Below, in pieces: positions 10,336 through 32,000 of a stretch of 32,000 nucleotides of DNA. The DNA lies in the NCBI GenBank assembly GCA_020160975.1, contig JAIUPJ010000001.1, positions 930,001 to 962,000 on the forward strand, in the 5' to 3' direction. The notes under the pieces were generated by a model, which saw nothing but the letters and a program-made list of their open reading frames with translations, was not told the DNA's origin and ran no database searches. This DNA comes from Candidatus Saccharimonadota bacterium. GTDB taxonomy: Bacteria; Patescibacteriota; Saccharimonadia; Saccharimonadales; Saccharimonadaceae. A program made the translations under genes and the position numbers. The stretch's first letter is position 1, and the number at the start of each line of letters is the position of its first letter.

Positions 10336-12852
10336 CTATAGCTGTTTTAGGCGCTCGCAGACAGCTTGCTGGTTCTTTTCGATGAGATCGACGCGGCCCT
10401 GAAGGTCGGTGATGCCCATTTCAATCACTCGCTTGAGGCCTATGTTGTGGAGCATTGGTGTGAAGAAATCGGTGTATTCCTGGAGCTGTCGGCGAGTCAT
10501 CAGGAATTGCCCGGCGTACCGGGGATAATAATCGTAGCTCTTGTCGCTGCCAAAAGTTTTTTCAATCCACGTCCAATTATCGCGTAGCCATTGCCAGGTA
10601 CGTTCCCGGGCATGCCGGTTGATCAGCATGTAAATAAACCAATAGGTTGTGTCTTGGGGGCGAATCAGCTCGGTGTTTGTCAGCATGCCAAGCACCCACT
10701 CGATGCTGGCTCTATCCTTGACGCAAGTAACCGCTCCGCGAATATCCTCTTTGAGATCGGGCGAAACTTCATGCTGGTAGCGCTCCATCAGCGAGGTCAG
10801 GAGCTCGGGGTTCTCACCATAGCGCACATCGACGCCAACCAGTAGCCCGCGCAGCTCGGGGTCAAGTGTCTCTAGTGGTTGGGCGCGAGCGCGGCGAATC
10901 GCTTCGGTGATTACCGCTTGATCCTCGCTGTAAATCATCTCGGTAATCATGCGAGTACGAAGTTTAATGTCGTTGTCCGATTCGTTGTCTCGCTTGTCCC
11001 AGCCGAGCCGCTCGAACTGCGTGCGAGCAAGTTCGCCGACAAAGGTTCGTAATTTTTTCTCTGCTACCTGGTCGTTCTCAATAAATTTCTTGAGTTCGTT
11101 GATTGCCATCACGATCGCATCCCAGACTTGCTCTTCAGATTCGTTTTGATACGCACCGAGGATGTCGATTAATGTCGAAGGATGAACCTCGCCGCCGCGA
11201 ACTAATAGAATCTGCTCGTTGAGGAGCTGGAGGCGTTGAGCGGTAGTGAGCTCGCCGCGTTGAAGTCGATCCAGTAGTGCCGCCAGAAGCGCTTCGTCAT
11301 AATGGGTGATAAAGTGTGCGCTATTGTGTTGGTTGAGGAGAAGCGAAGAGCCAGTATAAGTAACGACAGCTTCCCTAGTGTCGAGCAGAGTCGGAACTTC
11401 GGGGCTTTCGGCCTCGAGCGGAATCGGCCAGAGCTGGTCCCTAGAGTTGTGAGGCCCGATGAAGAACTGGGATTGGCGAAGCGTCAATTCATTGTTATCG
11501 AGATGGGCTGTCACAACCGGGTAGCCTGGTTGTGAAATCCAGGCTTTCATGAGGCTGCCAATCGCTTTGCCGCTGGCGGCATCGAGACAATCCCATAGAT
11601 CTGTTTCGTCGGTGTTTTGGTAGGCAAATCTGGTGAAATATTCTTTCAGCCCGGCGCGAAAGGCGTCTTCGCCAATGTACTCCATCATCATACGTAATAG
11701 TCGTGCGCCTTTGCTGTAAACAATCGCGCCATCAAAAATTGACTGAATCTCATCCGGATGGTGAACGTCGGTCTGCACTGATTGGACACCGTCAATCGCA
11801 TCACGGCGAGCTGCCATGACAGCCGAACCGGCATCAAAATCTAGCCAAACGTTCCAGTCTGGGTGAAGGGCGTTGGGTGCGATATTCTCCATGATACTGG
11901 CAAAACTTTCATTGAGCCAGAGGTTGTTCCACCATTTCATAGTGACGAGATTGCCAAACCACTGATGGCTGAGCTCGTGAGCGATGACAGCACTGACGTA
12001 TTGACGAGCATTGATACTGCTGTGGGTTTTGTCGACGATGAGGGCAGTTTCGCGGTAGGTGATAAGCCCCCAGTTCTCCATGGCGCCGGCACTAAAGTCT
12101 GGTACTGCCACATGATCAGCCTTGGGCAGCGGATACGGTACGCCAAAATAATCATCAAAAAACTCGATGATCTTGACAGCTTCTTCGAGGGCAAATTGCA
12201 GACTTTTACTTTTCTGAACGGGGGTGGCCCAGACTGTGACCTCGACTCCCTGCGACGTTGTTGCCGATGCTGACTGGAGCTCGCCCATGACGATAGCGAG
12301 TAGATAGGTGCTCATGCGGGGTGTAGTGTCAAAGGTCGTGACCAGCCTATCGTCGATAGTGTTTTGGCTTGTCGCCGGCATGTTGCCGAGCACGGCAATG
12401 CCGGTTTCTGTCGTGACGGTGACGTCAAAGGTGGCTTTGGCGGCCGGCTCATCGATACACGGAAACACTTCGCGCGCATAGTGGCTTTCAAACTGCGTTA
12501 CAAGCAATTCTTTCTTCTGCCCCTCATGCGTGAAGTAGCACGGGTACAGTCCATGCAGCGAGTCGGTGATGCTGCCGTGGTAGGTAATAGTGACCGTGTG
12601 GTCTCCTGGCGTCAGGCCATCCTGAGAAATCGTCACTTCGTCATCCTGCCCGTAGCTAAACTGTGCCGGCTGGTCGTCAATAGTAGTCTCTGTAATGCTG
12701 AGGTCGTGCGCGTGTACGGCTATCTGGCCATTGACAGACGATCCAGTGAGGATGACCGTACCTTGGAAGGTTCGCCCTGTGCGGTCGATCACGAGATTTA
12801 GATTGTAGTTGGTGGGGATAAATCGATCAAGGAGACGAGAAACTGTTTGCAT
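10336..12852 (-). CDS. pepN: Aminopeptidase N, M1 family (838 aa)
   Basis: GAMEN motif (GAMENWGLITYRE) and zinc site HELSHQWFGNLVTMKWWNNLWLNESFA (HEXXH-18-E). ERAP1-like C-terminal region. Confidence 0.93.
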   Translation of the reverse strand: MQTVSRLLDRFIPTNYNLNLVIDRTGRTFQGTVILTGSSVNGQIAVHAHDLSITETTIDDQPAQFSYGQDDEVTISQDGLTPGDHTVTITYHGSITDSLHGLYPCYFTHEGQKKELLVTQFESHYAREVFPCIDEPAAKATFDVTVTTETGIAVLGNMPATSQNTIDDRLVTTFDTTPRMSTYLLAIVMGELQSASATTSQGVEVTVWATPVQKSKSLQFALEEAVKIIEFFDDYFGVPYPLPKADHVAVPDFSAGAMENWGLITYRETALIVDKTHSSINARQYVSAVIAHELSHQWFGNLVTMKWWNNLWLNESFASIMENIAPNALHPDWNVWLDFDAGSAVMAARRDAIDGVQSVQTDVHHPDEIQSIFDGAIVYSKGARLLRMMMEYIGEDAFRAGLKEYFTRFAYQNTDETDLWDCLDAASGKAIGSLMKAWISQPGYPVVTAHLDNNELTLRQSQFFIGPHNSRDQLWPIPLEAESPEVPTLLDTREAVVTYTGSSLLLNQHNSAHFITHYDEALLAALLDRLQRGELTTAQRLQLLNEQILLVRGGEVHPSTLIDILGAYQNESEEQVWDAIVMAINELKKFIENDQVAEKKLRTFVGELARTQFERLGWDKRDNESDNDIKLRTRMITEMIYSEDQAVITEAIRRARAQPLETLDPELRGLLVGVDVRYGENPELLTSLMERYQHEVSPDLKEDIRGAVTCVKDRASIEWVLGMLTNTELIRPQDTTYWFIYMLINRHARERTWQWLRDNWTWIEKTFGSDKSYDYYPRYAGQFLMTRRQLQEYTDFFTPMLHNIGLKRVIEMGITDLQGRVDLIEKNQQAVCERLKQL

Positions 12853-12892
12853 ATATGTATTGTATCAGAGAAACACGGGGTATACTGGACTC
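12853..12892. promoter_or_regulatory. 40-bp back-to-back divergent promoter region for pepN and the nuclease gene
   Basis: Minus strand: TGaTACAAT (12867..12859), 6 nt, ATG at 12852. Plus strand: TATACT 12881-12886, 6 nt, ATG at 12893. Confidence 0.5.
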
Positions 12893-13627
12893 ATGAAACA
12901 ACGTCGCCGGCGAGTTCTGGGAGTGATATTGATTGCGATTGCAATCGCGCTGATGACGGTGAATTCTGGCCAGTCTCAGTTTGGCGCGCCAACAACGTCT
13001 ACGCGGCCGTCTGGTCCAAACATTACCGATGCGAGCCTGCCGAAAGAGAATCCCCCGCAACCAACACCGCTCGCGATCGTCGTGCTGGATACCATCGCCA
13101 TCAAGGGGCGTGCGCCCAAGACTGATTATCGACGGGTGCAATTTGGTGACGGATGGATACTGGTTGGAAACTGCGACACGCGCAACATCATTCTCAACCG
13201 CGATCTAACCGATGTAACGCTGACGGGCTGCAAGGTGGCGACAGGCAAGCTGACCGACCCGTACACAGGTAAGCTGATTGATTTTCAGCGCGGGCCCGAG
13301 GGGAGCACGTTGATACAGATTGATCATGTGGTGGCGCTGAGCAACGCTTGGCAAACCGGTGCGCAGTTGCTGACGCTTCAGCAGCGGATTGCCTTTGCTA
13401 ATGACCCACTCGAATTGCTGGCGGTTGATGGCAACGCCAATCAAGCAAAGGGCGATGGTGACGCCGCGACCTGGCTACCGGCAAACAAAGCCTTTCGCTG
13501 CCAATACGTCGCACGTCAAATTGCGGTGAAAGCTAAGTATAGTTTGTGGGTGACACAGGCCGAGAAAGAGGCTATGCAGCGGGTGCTCAGGGAATGTCCG
13601 GAGCAGACGGTACCGGGAGTGAGGTAG
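12893..13627 (+). CDS. Membrane-anchored/secreted DUF1524 (HNH-like) nuclease (245 aa from ATG 12893)
   Basis: N-terminus MKQRRRRVLGVILIAIAIALMTV (signal anchor), then a Pro/Thr-rich linker. Core IDHVVALSNAWQTG...AVDGNANQAKGDGDAATWLP matches the His-Me finger/DUF1524 pattern. The ORF-track start at 12809 (TTG) would overlap pepN and is unlikely. Confidence 0.8.
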   Translation: MKQRRRRVLGVILIAIAIALMTVNSGQSQFGAPTTSTRPSGPNITDASLPKENPPQPTPLAIVVLDTIAIKGRAPKTDYRRVQFGDGWILVGNCDTRNIILNRDLTDVTLTGCKVATGKLTDPYTGKLIDFQRGPEGSTLIQIDHVVALSNAWQTGAQLLTLQQRIAFANDPLELLAVDGNANQAKGDGDAATWLPANKAFRCQYVARQIAVKAKYSLWVTQAEKEAMQRVLRECPEQTVPGVR

Positions 13628-13775
13628 GGTTGGTCTTAGAGCTTAGAGCATAGCTAAACTGCAAAAATAACCCTTGGTTCTAAGTCTTAAGTCGTAAAAA
13701 ATTGTTTTTCGTCATTCCGGACTTGATCCAAAATTTAAAGATTCTGGTGTGCTTCTTCTCTAGAAAATCAAATCC

Positions 13776-14334
13776 TTTCTTTTGTCTCATCAAAAGAAAC
13801 AAAACCGACCACCTTTGGAGTCAAAGGTGGAGAAACCTCTGGGGCGGCTTCCCTCCGCCGGGAACAGCAACTACGACTTTCTTGGAAGACTGCGGAGTCT
13901 TTGTTCAGTGAGCAGGAACAAAGACGAAGTCCTCGTCTTGCCAGGAAAGCCGTAGTCACCGTGTCTCGGGTCAGTCCAGATGCCCCAGACCCCAGGACGC
14001 AGCAGAGCTGCTTATTTCAGCGGCTCTGCCGCAAAATACTGCAGTCACTCGTGACTGTACACCTAATGGGTCTTGGGAGCTCAAGAACCCAAGAAGACTG
14101 AGGATTGTCTTTTGGAGTCATTCACGACATTGTTTCCACTACAAACAATAGCGATACTGTAGTGGAATGCCCTTTAGGGCAGTATGTCGTGACCAAAAGA
14201 CAAGCAGAAGGCTTCTTGGCGTGAATGAGATATCCCAATGTCGTGTTTGGTTCTTTGATCGAAACAAAGAACTGTTTCCCTCGCTTTGCAGCAAAGCGAG
14301 TCGCTTTTTGCTTCTTTGGCGAAAGAAAAAGAAG
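13776..14334 (+). ncRNA. Candidate large structured RNA (class unknown; strand tentatively +)
   Basis: A dense series of perfect 6-10 bp hairpins plus nested long-range helices. No protein-like ORF. See findings for the coordinates of each helix. Confidence 0.35.
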
Positions 14335-14415
14335 TGGATTTATTCGGTTCTTTTGGATAAAGAGCTAGACTTACCCGTTTTGCAAAAAGGAGACGGCATA
14401 TAAATTTTTAATCCC

Positions 14416-14484
14416 AAAATGTCAAAACCCCACCCTCACCACACTGGCGGAGCGGGGCTCGACGCCGAGTGGGTGAGGGTGGGG
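14416..14484 (-). terminator. Very strong intrinsic terminator for a minus-strand transcript
   Basis: Extended hairpin 14428-14484. Thirteen contiguous bp (CCCCACCCTCACC 14428-14440 with GGTGAGGGTGGGG 14472-14484) plus three inner 4-bp segments. On the minus strand it is followed by TTTTGACATTTT (14427..14416). Confidence 0.7.
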
Positions 14485-14488
14485 TGAA

Positions 14489-14776
14489 TCAGAGGGCTGC
14501 TTGATACGCGCTGTCGGACGTCTTGATGAACCAAGGCCTCCAAAGCGGTAGTAGCGGTAGTTTCCTCAAGACAAGTGTCACTGGGTAGTGGCGGCTGTCA
14601 GCTGAGCTTGTCCCTACAGATCCCCACATGTGTCTTTGTCTGCGCTTGTAGATGAAGTGCACAGCAGGGCTCTTCGAGGTTCCTTTTGTGCGTTCATGCC
14701 GCTGCACTTGAGTGATCGTGCAGTTGGAGGCGACGACGACGACTTCCATTGTGCGAGTGATCACAGCATCTCCCAT
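14489..14776 (-). CDS. Doubtful 95-aa very basic ORF, or the body of a ~390-nt non-coding RNA, inside the minus-strand unit
   Basis: It is bracketed by a consensus promoter and the terminator. However, it lacks an SD, its composition is Arg/His/Trp/Cys-rich and unlike the neighbouring proteins, and I recognise no motif. Confidence 0.3.
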   Translation of the reverse strand: MGDAVITRTMEVVVVASNCTITQVQRHERTKGTSKSPAVHFIYKRRQRHMWGSVGTSSADSRHYPVTLVLRKLPLLPLWRPWFIKTSDSAYQAAL

Positions 14777-14811
14777 GATTGAGTGTCCAAAAACCAAAAA
14801 CTTCCATTTTA

Positions 14812-14840
14812 ATTATGACAAAACTAACTATATTTGTCAA
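14812..14840 (-). promoter_or_regulatory. Near-consensus sigma70-type promoter firing leftwards
   Basis: Minus strand reads TTGACA (14840..14835), a 17-nt spacer, then CATAAT (14817..14812). Predicted start is near 14805. Confidence 0.6.
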
Positions 14841-14860
14841 GTTTTGCGATGTTGTAACAG

Positions 14861-17842
<2,982 letters not shown>

Positions 17843-21191: not shown

Positions 21192-21291
21192 TCTACGTTG
21201 GGTGTCGGGATTGACACTGAAAATAAATTATAGCATTCTTTTCTAAATTATGCAATTTTATGTCACAGAATAAATATGAAATATACGTAAA

Positions 21292-21318
21292 TTAGCACTC
21301 GCACTTGACGAGTGCTAA
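21292..21318. promoter_or_regulatory. CIRCE element (HrcA operator) overlapping the clpC promoter
   Basis: TTAGCACTC (21292-21300), N9, GAGTGCTAA (21310-21318): a perfect match to the CIRCE consensus. Promoter TTGACG 21305-21310, 17 nt, TAAAAT 21328-21333. Confidence 0.85.
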
Positions 21319-21380
21319 TTTGTGCGTTAAAATCAGAGGTGACGTGGGCGATTAATGCCCAGAAACGGAGGGCAATTACT

Positions 21381-26213: not shown

Positions 26214-26302
26214 TTATCAGGAGATACGCGGAGTTCTACTTATTGGGAATTCTCTGAATGCACCTCACTGAGTGGGCTCCTGGTATCTATCGAAAGGAAC
26301 GT

Positions 26303-27244
26303 ATGGAAACAAAAGACATTATATTACTTGCTGTGACACTGCTGATACTTGGCGAAGTCACATATTTGTTGGCACGATTGCCAAAAACGTCAATTAAAGC
26401 TAAGGATCGTGCTGTGTTAGTCGATACCTCGGTGCTGATGGATGGGCGCATCACTGCTCTAGCACGAACAGGATTTATCGGCGGGACGCTGGTAATTCCA
26501 CGAAGTGTGGTTGGTGAGCTGCAGTTTTTGGCTGACAATGCAGACGCTGACAAGCGCGCCCGTGCGCGGCACGGACTCGATATCGTGACAGAATTGCAGC
26601 ATATGCCCGAAGTAGAAGTAGAATTGCTACAGGATGGTAGCCGTGCCACTGAAGGCGTGGATGAGCGGCTGCTTGCACTCGCTAAGAAGCACCAGGCGGT
26701 TATTTGTACGCTTGACTATAATCTCAACAAGGTTGCGGTTGTAGAGGGCATCACGGTACTCAATATCAATGAGCTGGCGCAGGCGCTTCGCATGGCGCAC
26801 TTGCCTGGTGAGGAATTGATGATCGAGGTCGTGCAAAAAGGTCAAGACAGCCATCAAGGCGTGGGGTACCTTCCTGACGGCACGATGGTAGTGGTTGAAC
26901 AAGCGAATAAGCTGATCGGACAAGCAGTACAGGTTGAGATTGTTCGCAGCCTCCAGACCGCTGCCGGCAAGATGATGTTTGCAAAGAGAGTTGGCGTTAA
27001 GCCAGTAGCTACCCAGGGAACAGCCGTGCTCAAGGCGGCCGTTTCATCGACGGGCGGAAGAAAGCAGGCGCAGACCACGCAACGTCAGAATTCGACTGAG
27101 CCCGAGAAACACGGACAGCAGAACCGCCGCACAAATGATACACCGAAACGCGCCTCTCAGCGACGAGCGTATCATGCCCAGCCAAAGCGGCAGAGCAGAG
27201 ATCGTGAGGATGCACTGCTCGATCTCGTGAATAACCAGAAGTAA
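26303..27244 (+). CDS. PIN/TRAM domain membrane protein, YacL-like, with a basic disordered C-terminal tail
   Basis: N-terminal TM, PIN domain (AVLVDTSVLMDGRI...), TRAM-like segment (GQAVQVEIVRSLQTAAGKMMFAK). SD AAAGGA precedes ATG 26303. The clpC-radA-PIN/TRAM order recalls the B. subtilis clpC operon region. Confidence 0.85.
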   Translation: METKDIILLAVTLLILGEVTYLLARLPKTSIKAKDRAVLVDTSVLMDGRITALARTGFIGGTLVIPRSVVGELQFLADNADADKRARARHGLDIVTELQHMPEVEVELLQDGSRATEGVDERLLALAKKHQAVICTLDYNLNKVAVVEGITVLNINELAQALRMAHLPGEELMIEVVQKGQDSHQGVGYLPDGTMVVVEQANKLIGQAVQVEIVRSLQTAAGKMMFAKRVGVKPVATQGTAVLKAAVSSTGGRKQAQTTQRQNSTEPEKHGQQNRRTNDTPKRASQRRAYHAQPKRQSRDREDALLDLVNNQK

Positions 27245-31358: not shown

Positions 31359-32000
31359 ATGAACGATTTGCAAAGCCATCTTTCCGAAGCGGCAGTCAAC
31401 AATATTGAAATATGGCTGACACTGCCGAAGTATGCCGAGTACAAGCAGGAGCTTCTAGCAATGATTGAGGCTAAACGATGGAAAGATCTTGAAGACTCAT
31501 TTTTTAAGGTTATAGAATTTGGGACCGGAGGACGACGGGGTGCAACAGGCGTGGGAAGTAATCGAATTAACCGCGTCACAATTGGCGAATCAACGCAAGC
31601 GCTCTGTCTCTATGCTGCACAAGCTGATTCAGAGGCGCCCACAAAAGGAGTCGTGATCGCCTGTGACACCCGACTAAGCTCACCGGAGCTTAGTCGTTAT
31701 GCAGCTCAGGTAGCTGCAGCCAACGGATTTAAGACATATATCTTCGATAGTTTTCGTGCGACACCCGAACTAAGTTTTGCGGTGAGAGAGCTGGGCTGTG
31801 CAGTTGGTATTGTCATCAGTGCTAGTCATAATCCCCCCGCTGATAACGGCTTCAAAGCGTATTGGAGTGATGGTGGACAGCTTGTCGCACCTCATGACAA
31901 AGGCGTACTTGAAGTAGCAGCAAAGGTCGAAATGATACAATCGCTCGACTCTTACGAAGAAGGTGTCGCTAGCGGGAAGATAACCATAATCTCTAGCGAG
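31359..32000 (+). CDS. Phosphoglucomutase/phosphomannomutase-family protein, N-terminal 214 aa (runs off the window)
   Basis: Not in the ORF track because there is no stop in the window. My own translation from ATG 31359 (SD TTGGAGG 31347-31353) is open to base 32000. It contains the active-site loop GIVISASHNPPADNGFK. Confidence 0.88.
   Translation, partial: MNDLQSHLSEAAVNNIEIWLTLPKYAEYKQELLAMIEAKRWKDLEDSFFKVIEFGTGGRRGATGVGSNRINRVTIGESTQALCLYAAQADSEAPTKGVVIACDTRLSSPELSRYAAQVAAANGFKTYIFDSFRATPELSFAVRELGCAVGIVISASHNPPADNGFKAYWSDGGQLVAPHDKGVLEVAAKVEMIQSLDSYEEGVASGKITIISSE

Follow-up and report, generated by a model that had tools for sequence, protein, structure and literature searches.

Two predicted structured modules, lying back to back and with pairing apparently kept by compensating mutations, in a 0.7-kb gene-free stretch upstream of yhhQ in a Saccharibacteria genome

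What occupies the 1,233 bp (13628-14860) separating a nuclease gene from yhhQ in the 32,000-nucleotide stretch of Candidatus Saccharimonadota DNA shown above (hereafter the window), given that the other spacers of this 32-kb window are short? A preliminary description had taken the interval for a coding desert, rich in perfect hairpins, and for a candidate locus of a single large RNA of about 1.2 kb. The conserved structure and its compensatory changes stood up to comparison with related loci; the single RNA did not. The left-hand 0.7 kb is a gene-free stretch made of two predicted structured modules lying back to back, the pairing of which has apparently been kept by compensating mutations: module A (13764-13995), which would be read on the minus strand, and module B (14066-14345), which would be read on the plus strand. 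The right-hand 350 bp or so hold an open reading frame (ORF) with its putative promoter and terminator.

The source genome belongs to the Saccharibacteria (TM7), close to Candidatus Saccharimonas, the nearest GTDB species genomes being Candidatus Saccharimonas metagenome-assembled genomes, and the YhhQ homologs are labelled Candidatus Saccharibacteria by their sources. The loci compared, designated by L numbers, are contigs reached via YhhQ and nuclease homologs; L019 is a JGI contig obtained in a 19-mer metagenome scan, in which it was the single contig matched. Identical copies of the locus are present in several metagenome assemblies.

The 13 hairpins listed in the preliminary description were all recovered where they had been placed. 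In 12 of these spans the 5-10 outer Watson-Crick pairs are perfect; the remaining one (13999-14032) is imperfect and has only two perfect outer pairs, and the RNAalifold consensus of four alleles resolves it into two 5-bp hairpins, the first of which covaries. Six perfect hairpins with a stem of at least 7 bp and a loop of 3-8 nt lie within 13628-14488 (861 nt), as against 15 over the rest of the window (31 kb), which amounts to an approximately 14-fold enrichment; shuffled versions of the region contain on average 0.28 of them, and at most three. The z-scores of the minimum free energy (MFE) in 200-nt windows range from -4 to -7.5 in most windows between 13800 and 14600 on both strands, as compared with values mostly within +/-2.5 in the flanking genes and from -1.1 to +1.7 in the windows inside 14600-14900. 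The hairpin loops measure 1-14 nt. The statement that all the stems differ and form no repeat family was only partly right: the end modules of A and B are inverted copies of each other, and a TTCTTT..AAAGAA hairpin occurs three times per element where 0.04 would be expected; neither the rest of the window nor 41 related loci contain a further example.

Module B, about 280-350 nt in length, consists of a rod (14066-14246, plus strand) followed by a 3' end module (14250-14345, plus strand). The rod is closed by the invariant helices TTGGGA/TCCCAA and CTCA/TGAG; it continues with helix P3 (CCAAGAAG/CTTCTTGG), an internal loop, the variable helix P4 and helix P5 (CACGACAT/ATGTCGTG), and ends in two tip hairpins, P6 (14134-14167) and P7 (14168-14181). 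The two arms of P4, which are about 85 nt apart, read GTCTTTTGG/CCAAAAGAC in the window and GTACCAATCCAG/CTGGATTGGTAC in L019, and in three alleles this helix consists of 9, 12 and 8 bp of unrelated but complementary sequence. The 3' end module, which is more conserved than the neighbouring protein genes, carries on the plus strand the hairpins H8 (14250-14272), H9 (14280-14300), which is followed by TCGCTTTTTG and was picked out as resembling an intrinsic terminator by the terminator scan, and H10 (14311-14334), followed by GGATTT. The stem of H9 covaries, reading CTTCCTTT/AAAGGAAG in L008.

When the rod and its flanking hairpins were compared in four alleles, 27 of the 101 pairs were found to have changed on both sides, and 96.8% of the cells were paired. 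Column shuffles gave 13.2 +/- 2.4 such pairs, none of the 500 reaching 27, and slid partners gave 1-5. The substitutions in the element follow base pairing, not codons, and a covariance model built from three rods detected an allele that it had not seen (L052) with E = 4.6e-37.

Two further candidate pairings were noticed in the rod. Positions 14118-14124 and 14222-14228 (TCATTCA/TGAATGA) form a candidate pseudoknot or alternative helix competing with CTCA/TGAG, and in the L052/L062 allele both sides have changed (TCACTCA/TGAGTGA). In addition, ATGTCGTG is present twice (at 14183 and 14236), giving two possible partners for CACGACAT (at 14123).

Module A has a length of about 230 nt and is described here on the minus strand. 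Its body (13838-13995) is closed by a stem formed by CTGGGGC (about 13840) and GCCCCAG (about 13984), enclosing the hairpin at 13843-13859 and a long imperfect hairpin at 13869-13957. Its 3' end module (13764-13835), an inverted copy of 14275-14345, comprises hp1 (13776-13799), a verified hairpin with the TTCTTT..AAAGAA stem, and hp2 (13809-13830), which has a CTTTG..CAAAG stem, is followed by TCGGTTTTGTTTC on the minus strand and also resembled an intrinsic terminator in the terminator scan. In a comparison of four copies, 25 of the 54 pairs had changed on both sides, with 94.4% of the cells paired; column shuffles gave 13.5 +/- 2.3 (0/500 reaching 25) and slid partners 2-8. Copies of module A fall into two divergent types, A1 and A2, both of which are found together with the same B. 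In L008, A2 lies ahead of B, and a solo inverted A1 lies beside yhhQ, across the small ORF.

Between the two modules lie the central hairpins (13999-14057), corresponding to helices 2-4 of the consensus fold, to which no strand was assigned. The stem of H1a (13999-14011, GCAGC-AGA-GCTGC) reads GCAGT/ACTGC in L019 and GCAAC/GTTGC in L008; H1b (14019-14031) comes from RNAalifold; and H2 (14042-14057) still forms a hairpin in other alleles in which its stem sequence is wholly replaced, with three pairs changed on both sides.

The preliminary description had weakly favoured the plus strand, which agrees with module B and not with module A. The MFE of module A is lower on the minus strand in all four copies, by 3-15 kcal/mol, and RNAalifold gives 15 G-U cells on the minus strand versus three on the plus strand for the pair of A1 copies. 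Module B folds better on the plus strand by 4-6 kcal/mol in the three alleles tested, and its one-sided changes are mostly G-U on the plus strand, where the same changes would be A-C on the minus strand. Terminator-like sites with a T-tract were found at hp2 only on the minus strand and at H9 only on the plus strand, both facing outward; for hp1 and hp2, a T-tract is lacking on the plus strand, and on the minus strand the two form a tandem terminator. Local alignments of A(-) with B(+) score 27-44, as compared with 17 +/- 2 in shuffles and 15-24 for A(+) with B(+). What the two modules have in common is a 3' module of about 70 nt, consisting of the CTTTG..CAAAG hairpin, TCGSTTTTTG, the TTCTTT..AAAGAA hairpin and GGATTT, and the B-rod model gives weak matches to three copies of A in the A(-)/B(+) relative orientation only. 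Since the MFE and G-U data, the outward T-tracts and the A(-)/B(+) alignment agree, A and B were assigned opposite senses. The likeness of the two 3' modules also gives the 580-bp core terminal inverted repeats, in which a single two-hairpin module is present at 13764-13835 and, in the opposite orientation, at 14275-14345; a reading of these repeats as two outward-facing terminators is equally good.

The most unusual feature of the locus is the rod of module B, which is hypervariable within the species and preserves its fold. Contigs whose encoded nuclease is identical to that of the window carry two rod alleles which are about 75% identical, and the remainder of 10393-15700 in these contigs is 95-100% identical (in 150-nt bins), the strains being about 98% identical outside the module. 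In a comparison of 1.3 kb between the window and L052, 66 of the 75 differences lie inside 13995-14245, 63 of them in 14045-14245. In a third allele, that of L019, the rod has 73% identity and positions 14228-14708 have 100%; overall, rod identity between alleles is 69-75%. The alleles are mosaic, L052 having P4, P5 and P7 as in L008 and the P6 loop as in the window. For the block H8-H10, identity is 98-100% within the species and 89% with L008. The alleles differ by tolerated indels of 1-4 nt, and all of them keep the fold. Further along, inside tgt (window 15800-16100), the identity with L062/L065, elsewhere 95-100%, drops to 91% and then to 79%, so that mosaic recombination extends beyond the rod.

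The structured part is present in L008 (83% YhhQ identity, 1.48-kb gap), in L019 and in the same-species strains L052, L057 and L061-L067, and A and B are adjacent and in the same order in the window, L008 and L019 lineages. The same site lacks the element in L010 and L049 (71-bp gap), in L016, which has only the HP hairpin described below, and in L012, which has padR and another gene. In L013, L014 and L050, the slot holds a Y1 (IS200-like) transposase and 39-nt palindromes instead of the element. Because it is present or absent among close relatives, the element must be regarded as accessory and narrowly distributed. This distribution weakens the earlier argument that sequence retained in so compact a genome must have an essential function, close relatives carrying 71 bp or other cassettes at the site.

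In L019, the right side is identical to the window; on the left (L019 950-1367, shown on the minus strand), a different ORF ends, with a terminator of its own, and an AT-rich stretch follows. This ORF takes the place of the GmrSD_C nuclease gene as left neighbour, so that the element has a different left junction there. The Y1 gene of L013 (383-1143; it is also present in L014, with a remnant at positions 1-40 of L050) encodes a 205-aa IS200-like and possibly RAYT-like transposase, and is flanked by perfect 39-nt palindromes (CACCCTTTGCTATCGGGTCGTACCCGATAGCAAAGGGTG), the outer arms of which resemble hp2 (CCACCTTTG/CAAAGGTGG). A link of RAYT/REP type was rejected in the case of the window, which has no Y1 gene near the element and no copy of the Y1 palindromes even when three mismatches are allowed.

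The earlier failure to place the region in any of the RNA families then considered was borne out by the searches. None of the Rfam 15 families (including 6S, RNase P, tmRNA, SRP, group I/II introns and preQ1) reached its gathering threshold anywhere in the window; at E <= 10, the interval 13400-15100 gave only chance-level matches to microRNAs, small nucleolar RNAs and internal ribosome entry sites (9-22 bits versus thresholds of 40-88), and OLE, ROOL, GOLLD, HEARO and raiA had no Rfam match even at this level. ARAGORN found no tRNA or tmRNA. Exact and degenerate patterns of the conserved blocks had zero matches in IMG/VR viral contigs, and blastn gave no match in phage and plasmid collections. 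A preQ1 or yhhQ leader riboswitch was rejected: the promoter-like site of yhhQ (14844-14872) lies downstream of the whole element, and no element is present in relatives whose nuclease gene and yhhQ are 71 bp apart. Nor is there any reverse-transcriptase-like ORF in or beside the region, as a retron non-coding RNA (msr-msd) would call for. Decay of a protein gene had also been raised, and a frameshifted remnant of this kind can be dismissed as highly improbable: gene callers did place ORFs of 149 aa and 118 aa in L001, but the six-frame translation of 13995-14346 had no match at E <= 10 among 5.8 billion proteins, the ORFs of the locus have no Pfam matches, the substitutions track pairing rather than codons and indels of 1-4 nt are tolerated.

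Taken together, the searches and the covariation argue that this is a real, selected, structured non-coding element outside the curated families, and that its folds are under selection for pairing. The reading that we favour, tentatively and at a little short of even chances, is that of an accessory locus of two paralogous, terminator-capped structured RNAs, with an invariant scaffold and a variable interior in the rod of B. A (minus) and B (plus) would be head-to-head RNA genes about 70 nt apart, each folding into a long irregular rod closed by a G-rich/C-rich helix, and the tandem hairpins and U-tract after each module would serve to stop transcription and protect the 3' end. The modules may act as stable RNAs in trans; the invariant blocks (the base of the rod and H8-H10) may provide a common scaffold or a protein-binding surface; and the hypervariable helices may be either the part that determines specificity or a freely drifting spacer. 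Because no sigma-70 promoter was found ahead of either module, it is proposed that the RNAs might be cut from read-through transcripts, with the nuclease gene as the source on the plus strand and the strong promoter of the small ORF as the source on the minus strand.

Several points weigh against this interpretation. A scan and inspection by eye across the alleles yielded no convincing promoter upstream of either module on the sense strand, and in 13999-14057 the promoter scan and a reading of the sequence gave no sigma-70-like promoter. The strand calls are drawn from modest G-U counts in few, partly non-independent alleles; perfect palindromes score alike on both strands; and in the RNAalifold consensus of B the minus strand (-124.2 kcal/mol) does as well as the plus strand (-120.4 kcal/mol). 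Only four or five alleles from one narrow clade are available, which makes the covariation statistics indicative, not final, and nhmmer and the covariance model did not find the element in any of 29 further Saccharibacteria yhhQ loci. A and B resemble each other mostly in the terminator module, so that the rods themselves may be non-homologous. Lastly, the inverted ends, the pattern of presence and absence and the extra solo A of L008 fit a mobile DNA element too.

The main rival is therefore a non-autonomous DNA element of foldback type, or one resembling miniature inverted-repeat transposable elements (MITEs), of about 580 bp (13764-14345) with imperfect terminal inverted repeats of about 70 bp, which we consider unlikely. 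The hairpins would matter when the DNA is single-stranded, in transposition or replication, and DNA-level processes, for instance template switching or arm-to-arm conversion, would keep the palindromes perfect instead of selection acting on an RNA. In addition to the inverted repeats at its ends, this explanation can call on the occupied sites in the window, L008 and L019 and the unoccupied ones in L010, L049 and L016; on the solo inverted A on the other side of the small ORF in L008; on the Y1 transposase in the slot of L013, L014 and L050, with palindromes whose outer arms are hp2-like; and on the lack of a detected promoter and the many stems with perfect Watson-Crick pairing. However, neither the 32-kb window nor about 400 kb of sequence from some 35 related genomes, a small part of each genome being covered, yielded a second copy; the right-hand neighbours are the same throughout; neither a target-site duplication nor a clean empty site could be defined; and the Y1-associated palindrome is absent from the window. 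The T-tracts have also been kept facing outward on both end modules, H8-H10 is more conserved than the coding genes, and the rod alleles coexist in one population, unlike those of a recently spreading repeat.

Less probable again is the view that the locus contains no dedicated RNA gene, and that the hairpins are terminators, RNA-stabilising 3' structures or insulators set between two converging units, the nuclease gene (+) and the small ORF (-), against read-through or antisense interference. It would account for the three Rho-independent terminator-like sites, H9 (+), hp2 (-) and HP (-), which are suitably oriented, and for the lack of a canonical terminator directly 3' of the nuclease stop codon in the window; the near-consensus promoter of the small ORF makes read-through pressure plausible. 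Since H9, hp2 and HP are terminator-like, individual hairpins are explained in this way, but the rods are not: a 180-nt multi-helix rod, 27 compensatory pairs and invariant 30-nt blocks are superfluous in a terminator. Furthermore, a spacer of 71 bp suffices in relatives, and L008, which has a separate canonical terminator for the nuclease gene, nevertheless keeps A and B.

The single large RNA originally proposed, which would be an ornate plus-strand RNA of 0.7-1.2 kb comparable with OLE, ROOL or GOLLD, retains at most a small likelihood, slightly below that of the terminator cluster. Folding of the whole region gives a lower MFE on the plus strand (-464.7 versus -446.9 kcal/mol), B favours this strand and ends there in a terminator (14280-14310), and A and B are adjacent and in the same order in three lineages. 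Against this, A favours the minus strand in all copies, the T-tract of hp1/hp2 is on the minus strand only, A occurs alone and inverted in L008, and types A1 and A2 accompany the same B; the part from 14489 to 14860 consists of an ORF and promoters, and there was no match to OLE, ROOL, GOLLD, HEARO or raiA. The resemblance to the latter RNAs is limited to a multi-helix structure of several hundred nucleotides, covariation and a patchy distribution, and the element differs from them in that it consists of two smaller modules on opposite strands and is confined to one Saccharimonas clade.

Among the known RNAs, 6S RNA binds the RNA polymerase holoenzyme and templates a product RNA from its central bubble, and Bacillus has two 6S RNAs. 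The rod of B is reminiscent of 6S/Ms1 RNA in being an irregular rod of about 180 nt with a closing stem, an internal loop of about 10 x 10 and a distal stem, and the presence of more than one copy per locus recalls the Bacillus pair. However, no 6S model matched at E <= 10, the tip of B is bifurcated and its internal loop is not conserved; the absence of the element from close relatives and its hypervariability within the species would be unexpected in a housekeeping 6S RNA. With REPIN/BIME, BOX, Correia and MITE-like repeats, the element shares its modular, hairpin-forming, intergenic nature, its inverted ends, its presence/absence pattern and its compensatory stem changes, as well as the occurrence of a Y1 transposase in the same slot in sister lineages. 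Unlike REPIN and MITE-like repeats, it is a single-locus element in the available sequence, with no target-site duplication found; it is much longer than a REPIN, and its alleles are highly divergent instead of forming a near-identical population.

TIGR-Tas arrays, which occur in candidate phyla radiation (CPR) bacteria, are variable yet consistently palindromic series of stem-loops, the units of which have box C (RUGAUGA) and box D (CUGA) and two 8-12-nt spacers in large loops, with an adjacent Nop-domain Tas protein (Faure et al., 2025; PMC12045711). The CPR host and the variable stem-loop series are common to both, but the loops of the element measure only 1-14 nt, and its hairpins nest into two domains rather than forming equal tandem units. 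This identity was rejected on the grounds of the missing box C, the missing Nop-domain protein and the small loops: RTGATGA does not occur on either strand between 11692 and 19329, and no Nop domain was found in the Pfam annotation of the neighbours within 10 kb or in the unannotated ORFs of the window.

ColE1 RNA I, R1 CopA and P1/P7 c4 are antisense or immunity RNAs, the helices and loops of which diverge into new specificities. As in these RNAs, the structure of the element is kept and its sequence differs sharply between similar strains, as theirs does between similar replicons; unlike them, it has no identified overlapping target transcript, replicon or partner gene. The longest exact complement elsewhere in the 32-kb window was 12 nt, with none of 13 nt or more, which is within the range of the shuffles (11-15). 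A more speculative extension of the two-RNA reading, to which we attach only a slight probability, is that this episymbiotic CPR bacterium might possess an RNA-based recognition system with the rod of B as its exchangeable specificity module, serving for example in immunity, in incompatibility, in the discrimination of kin or host, or in a guide-like role. Balancing or diversifying selection would then have maintained ancient alleles side by side in one population, the scaffold (the base of the rod and H8-H10) remaining nearly invariant, and A would represent an older copy or a paralogous partner.

The remainder of the interval lies outside the modules. The gene on its left encodes a membrane-anchored nuclease with a GmrSD_C (DUF1524) domain according to Pfam (12809/12893-13627, plus strand), and its stop codon is followed by an AT-rich, weakly structured spacer (13628-13763; z about -1.2 to -1.6) outside the conserved element, for which nhmmer found homologs only in near-identical strains. 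No canonical terminator was found in the window directly 3' of this stop codon, whereas L008 has one at the position matching the spacer. On the other side of B, the AT-rich hairpins at 14346-14426 are degenerate and, according to the alignment and the fold energies, poorly conserved in L008.

Next to these comes HP (14427-14485, minus strand), a long GC-rich hairpin followed by TTTTGACATTTT on the minus strand, which was retrieved in the repeat search and probably terminates the small ORF. Across lineages, even those without A and B, its core (CACACTGGCGGAGCGGGGCTCGACGCCGAGTGGGTG) shows 97-100% identity; it is 100% identical to that of L008, where the coding genes are 77-81% identical. Matches were obtained with nhmmer and blastn in L008, L013, L016-18, L020, L050 and L051, the copies lying for example at 1160-1232 in L013, 4863-4921 in L016, about 58-135 in L050 and about 123-179 in L051. 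Its core seems to be kept beyond the needs of a terminator, and may be a protein-binding or recombination site.

The preliminary description had held all the 1,233 bp to be non-coding, which is contradicted by the minus-strand ORF at 14489-14797. This small orphan ORF would encode 95 aa if the ATG at 14776 is the start, or about 86 aa with an ATG conserved in L050 as the start, and ends 3 nt from HP. In L050 it is open and without indels at 81% nucleotide identity, with substitutions distributed 14:14:26 over the codon positions, which is a mild excess at the third; it is probably a real gene, the comparison with L050 being the one on which this coding status is based. Its homologs form one protein cluster only, with no Pfam match. 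A minus-strand promoter with 11/12 matches to the sigma-70 consensus (14840-14812, TTGACA-17-CATAAT) would serve the ORF, and a plus-strand one (14844-14872, TTGCGA-17-TATACT) would serve yhhQ, both having been identified by the promoter scan. These divergent promoters together span 14812-14872, and the block 14833-14860 is conserved in L013 and L015.

The small ORF occupies what looks like a cassette slot (window 14489-14860; L008 4271-4700; L013 1230-1520; L051 180-470), which holds unrelated small minus-strand ORFs of 95-102, 100, 61 and 73 aa, each stopping 0-3 nt from HP and starting beside the conserved block TTTGTCAAGTTTTGCGA, which contains the -35 boxes of both divergent promoters. 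This arrangement suggests that the ORFs have been swapped by recombination through the conserved flanks. Beyond the slot, yhhQ (14861-15556, plus strand) is followed by tgt, queA and nusA. Elsewhere in the window, a 328-aa ORF with PIN and TRAM domains was observed at 26258-27244, and the longest perfect hairpins outside the locus, with stems of 13 bp (21289-21321) and 11 bp (31671-31696), may be terminators.

To our knowledge, and according to full-text searches of the literature, few non-coding RNAs have been described in Saccharibacteria and other CPR bacteria beyond the universal ones. The present locus adds to them a structured element, supported by covariation, that belongs to no curated family, and in which a segment of about 180 nt keeps its fold and, within one species, shows about ten times the divergence of the genome around it. 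If the element acts as RNA, it would have a design combining a scaffold with a variable module; if it is a foldback DNA element, it would mark a recombination hot spot beside the queuosine-salvage genes of these reduced genomes.

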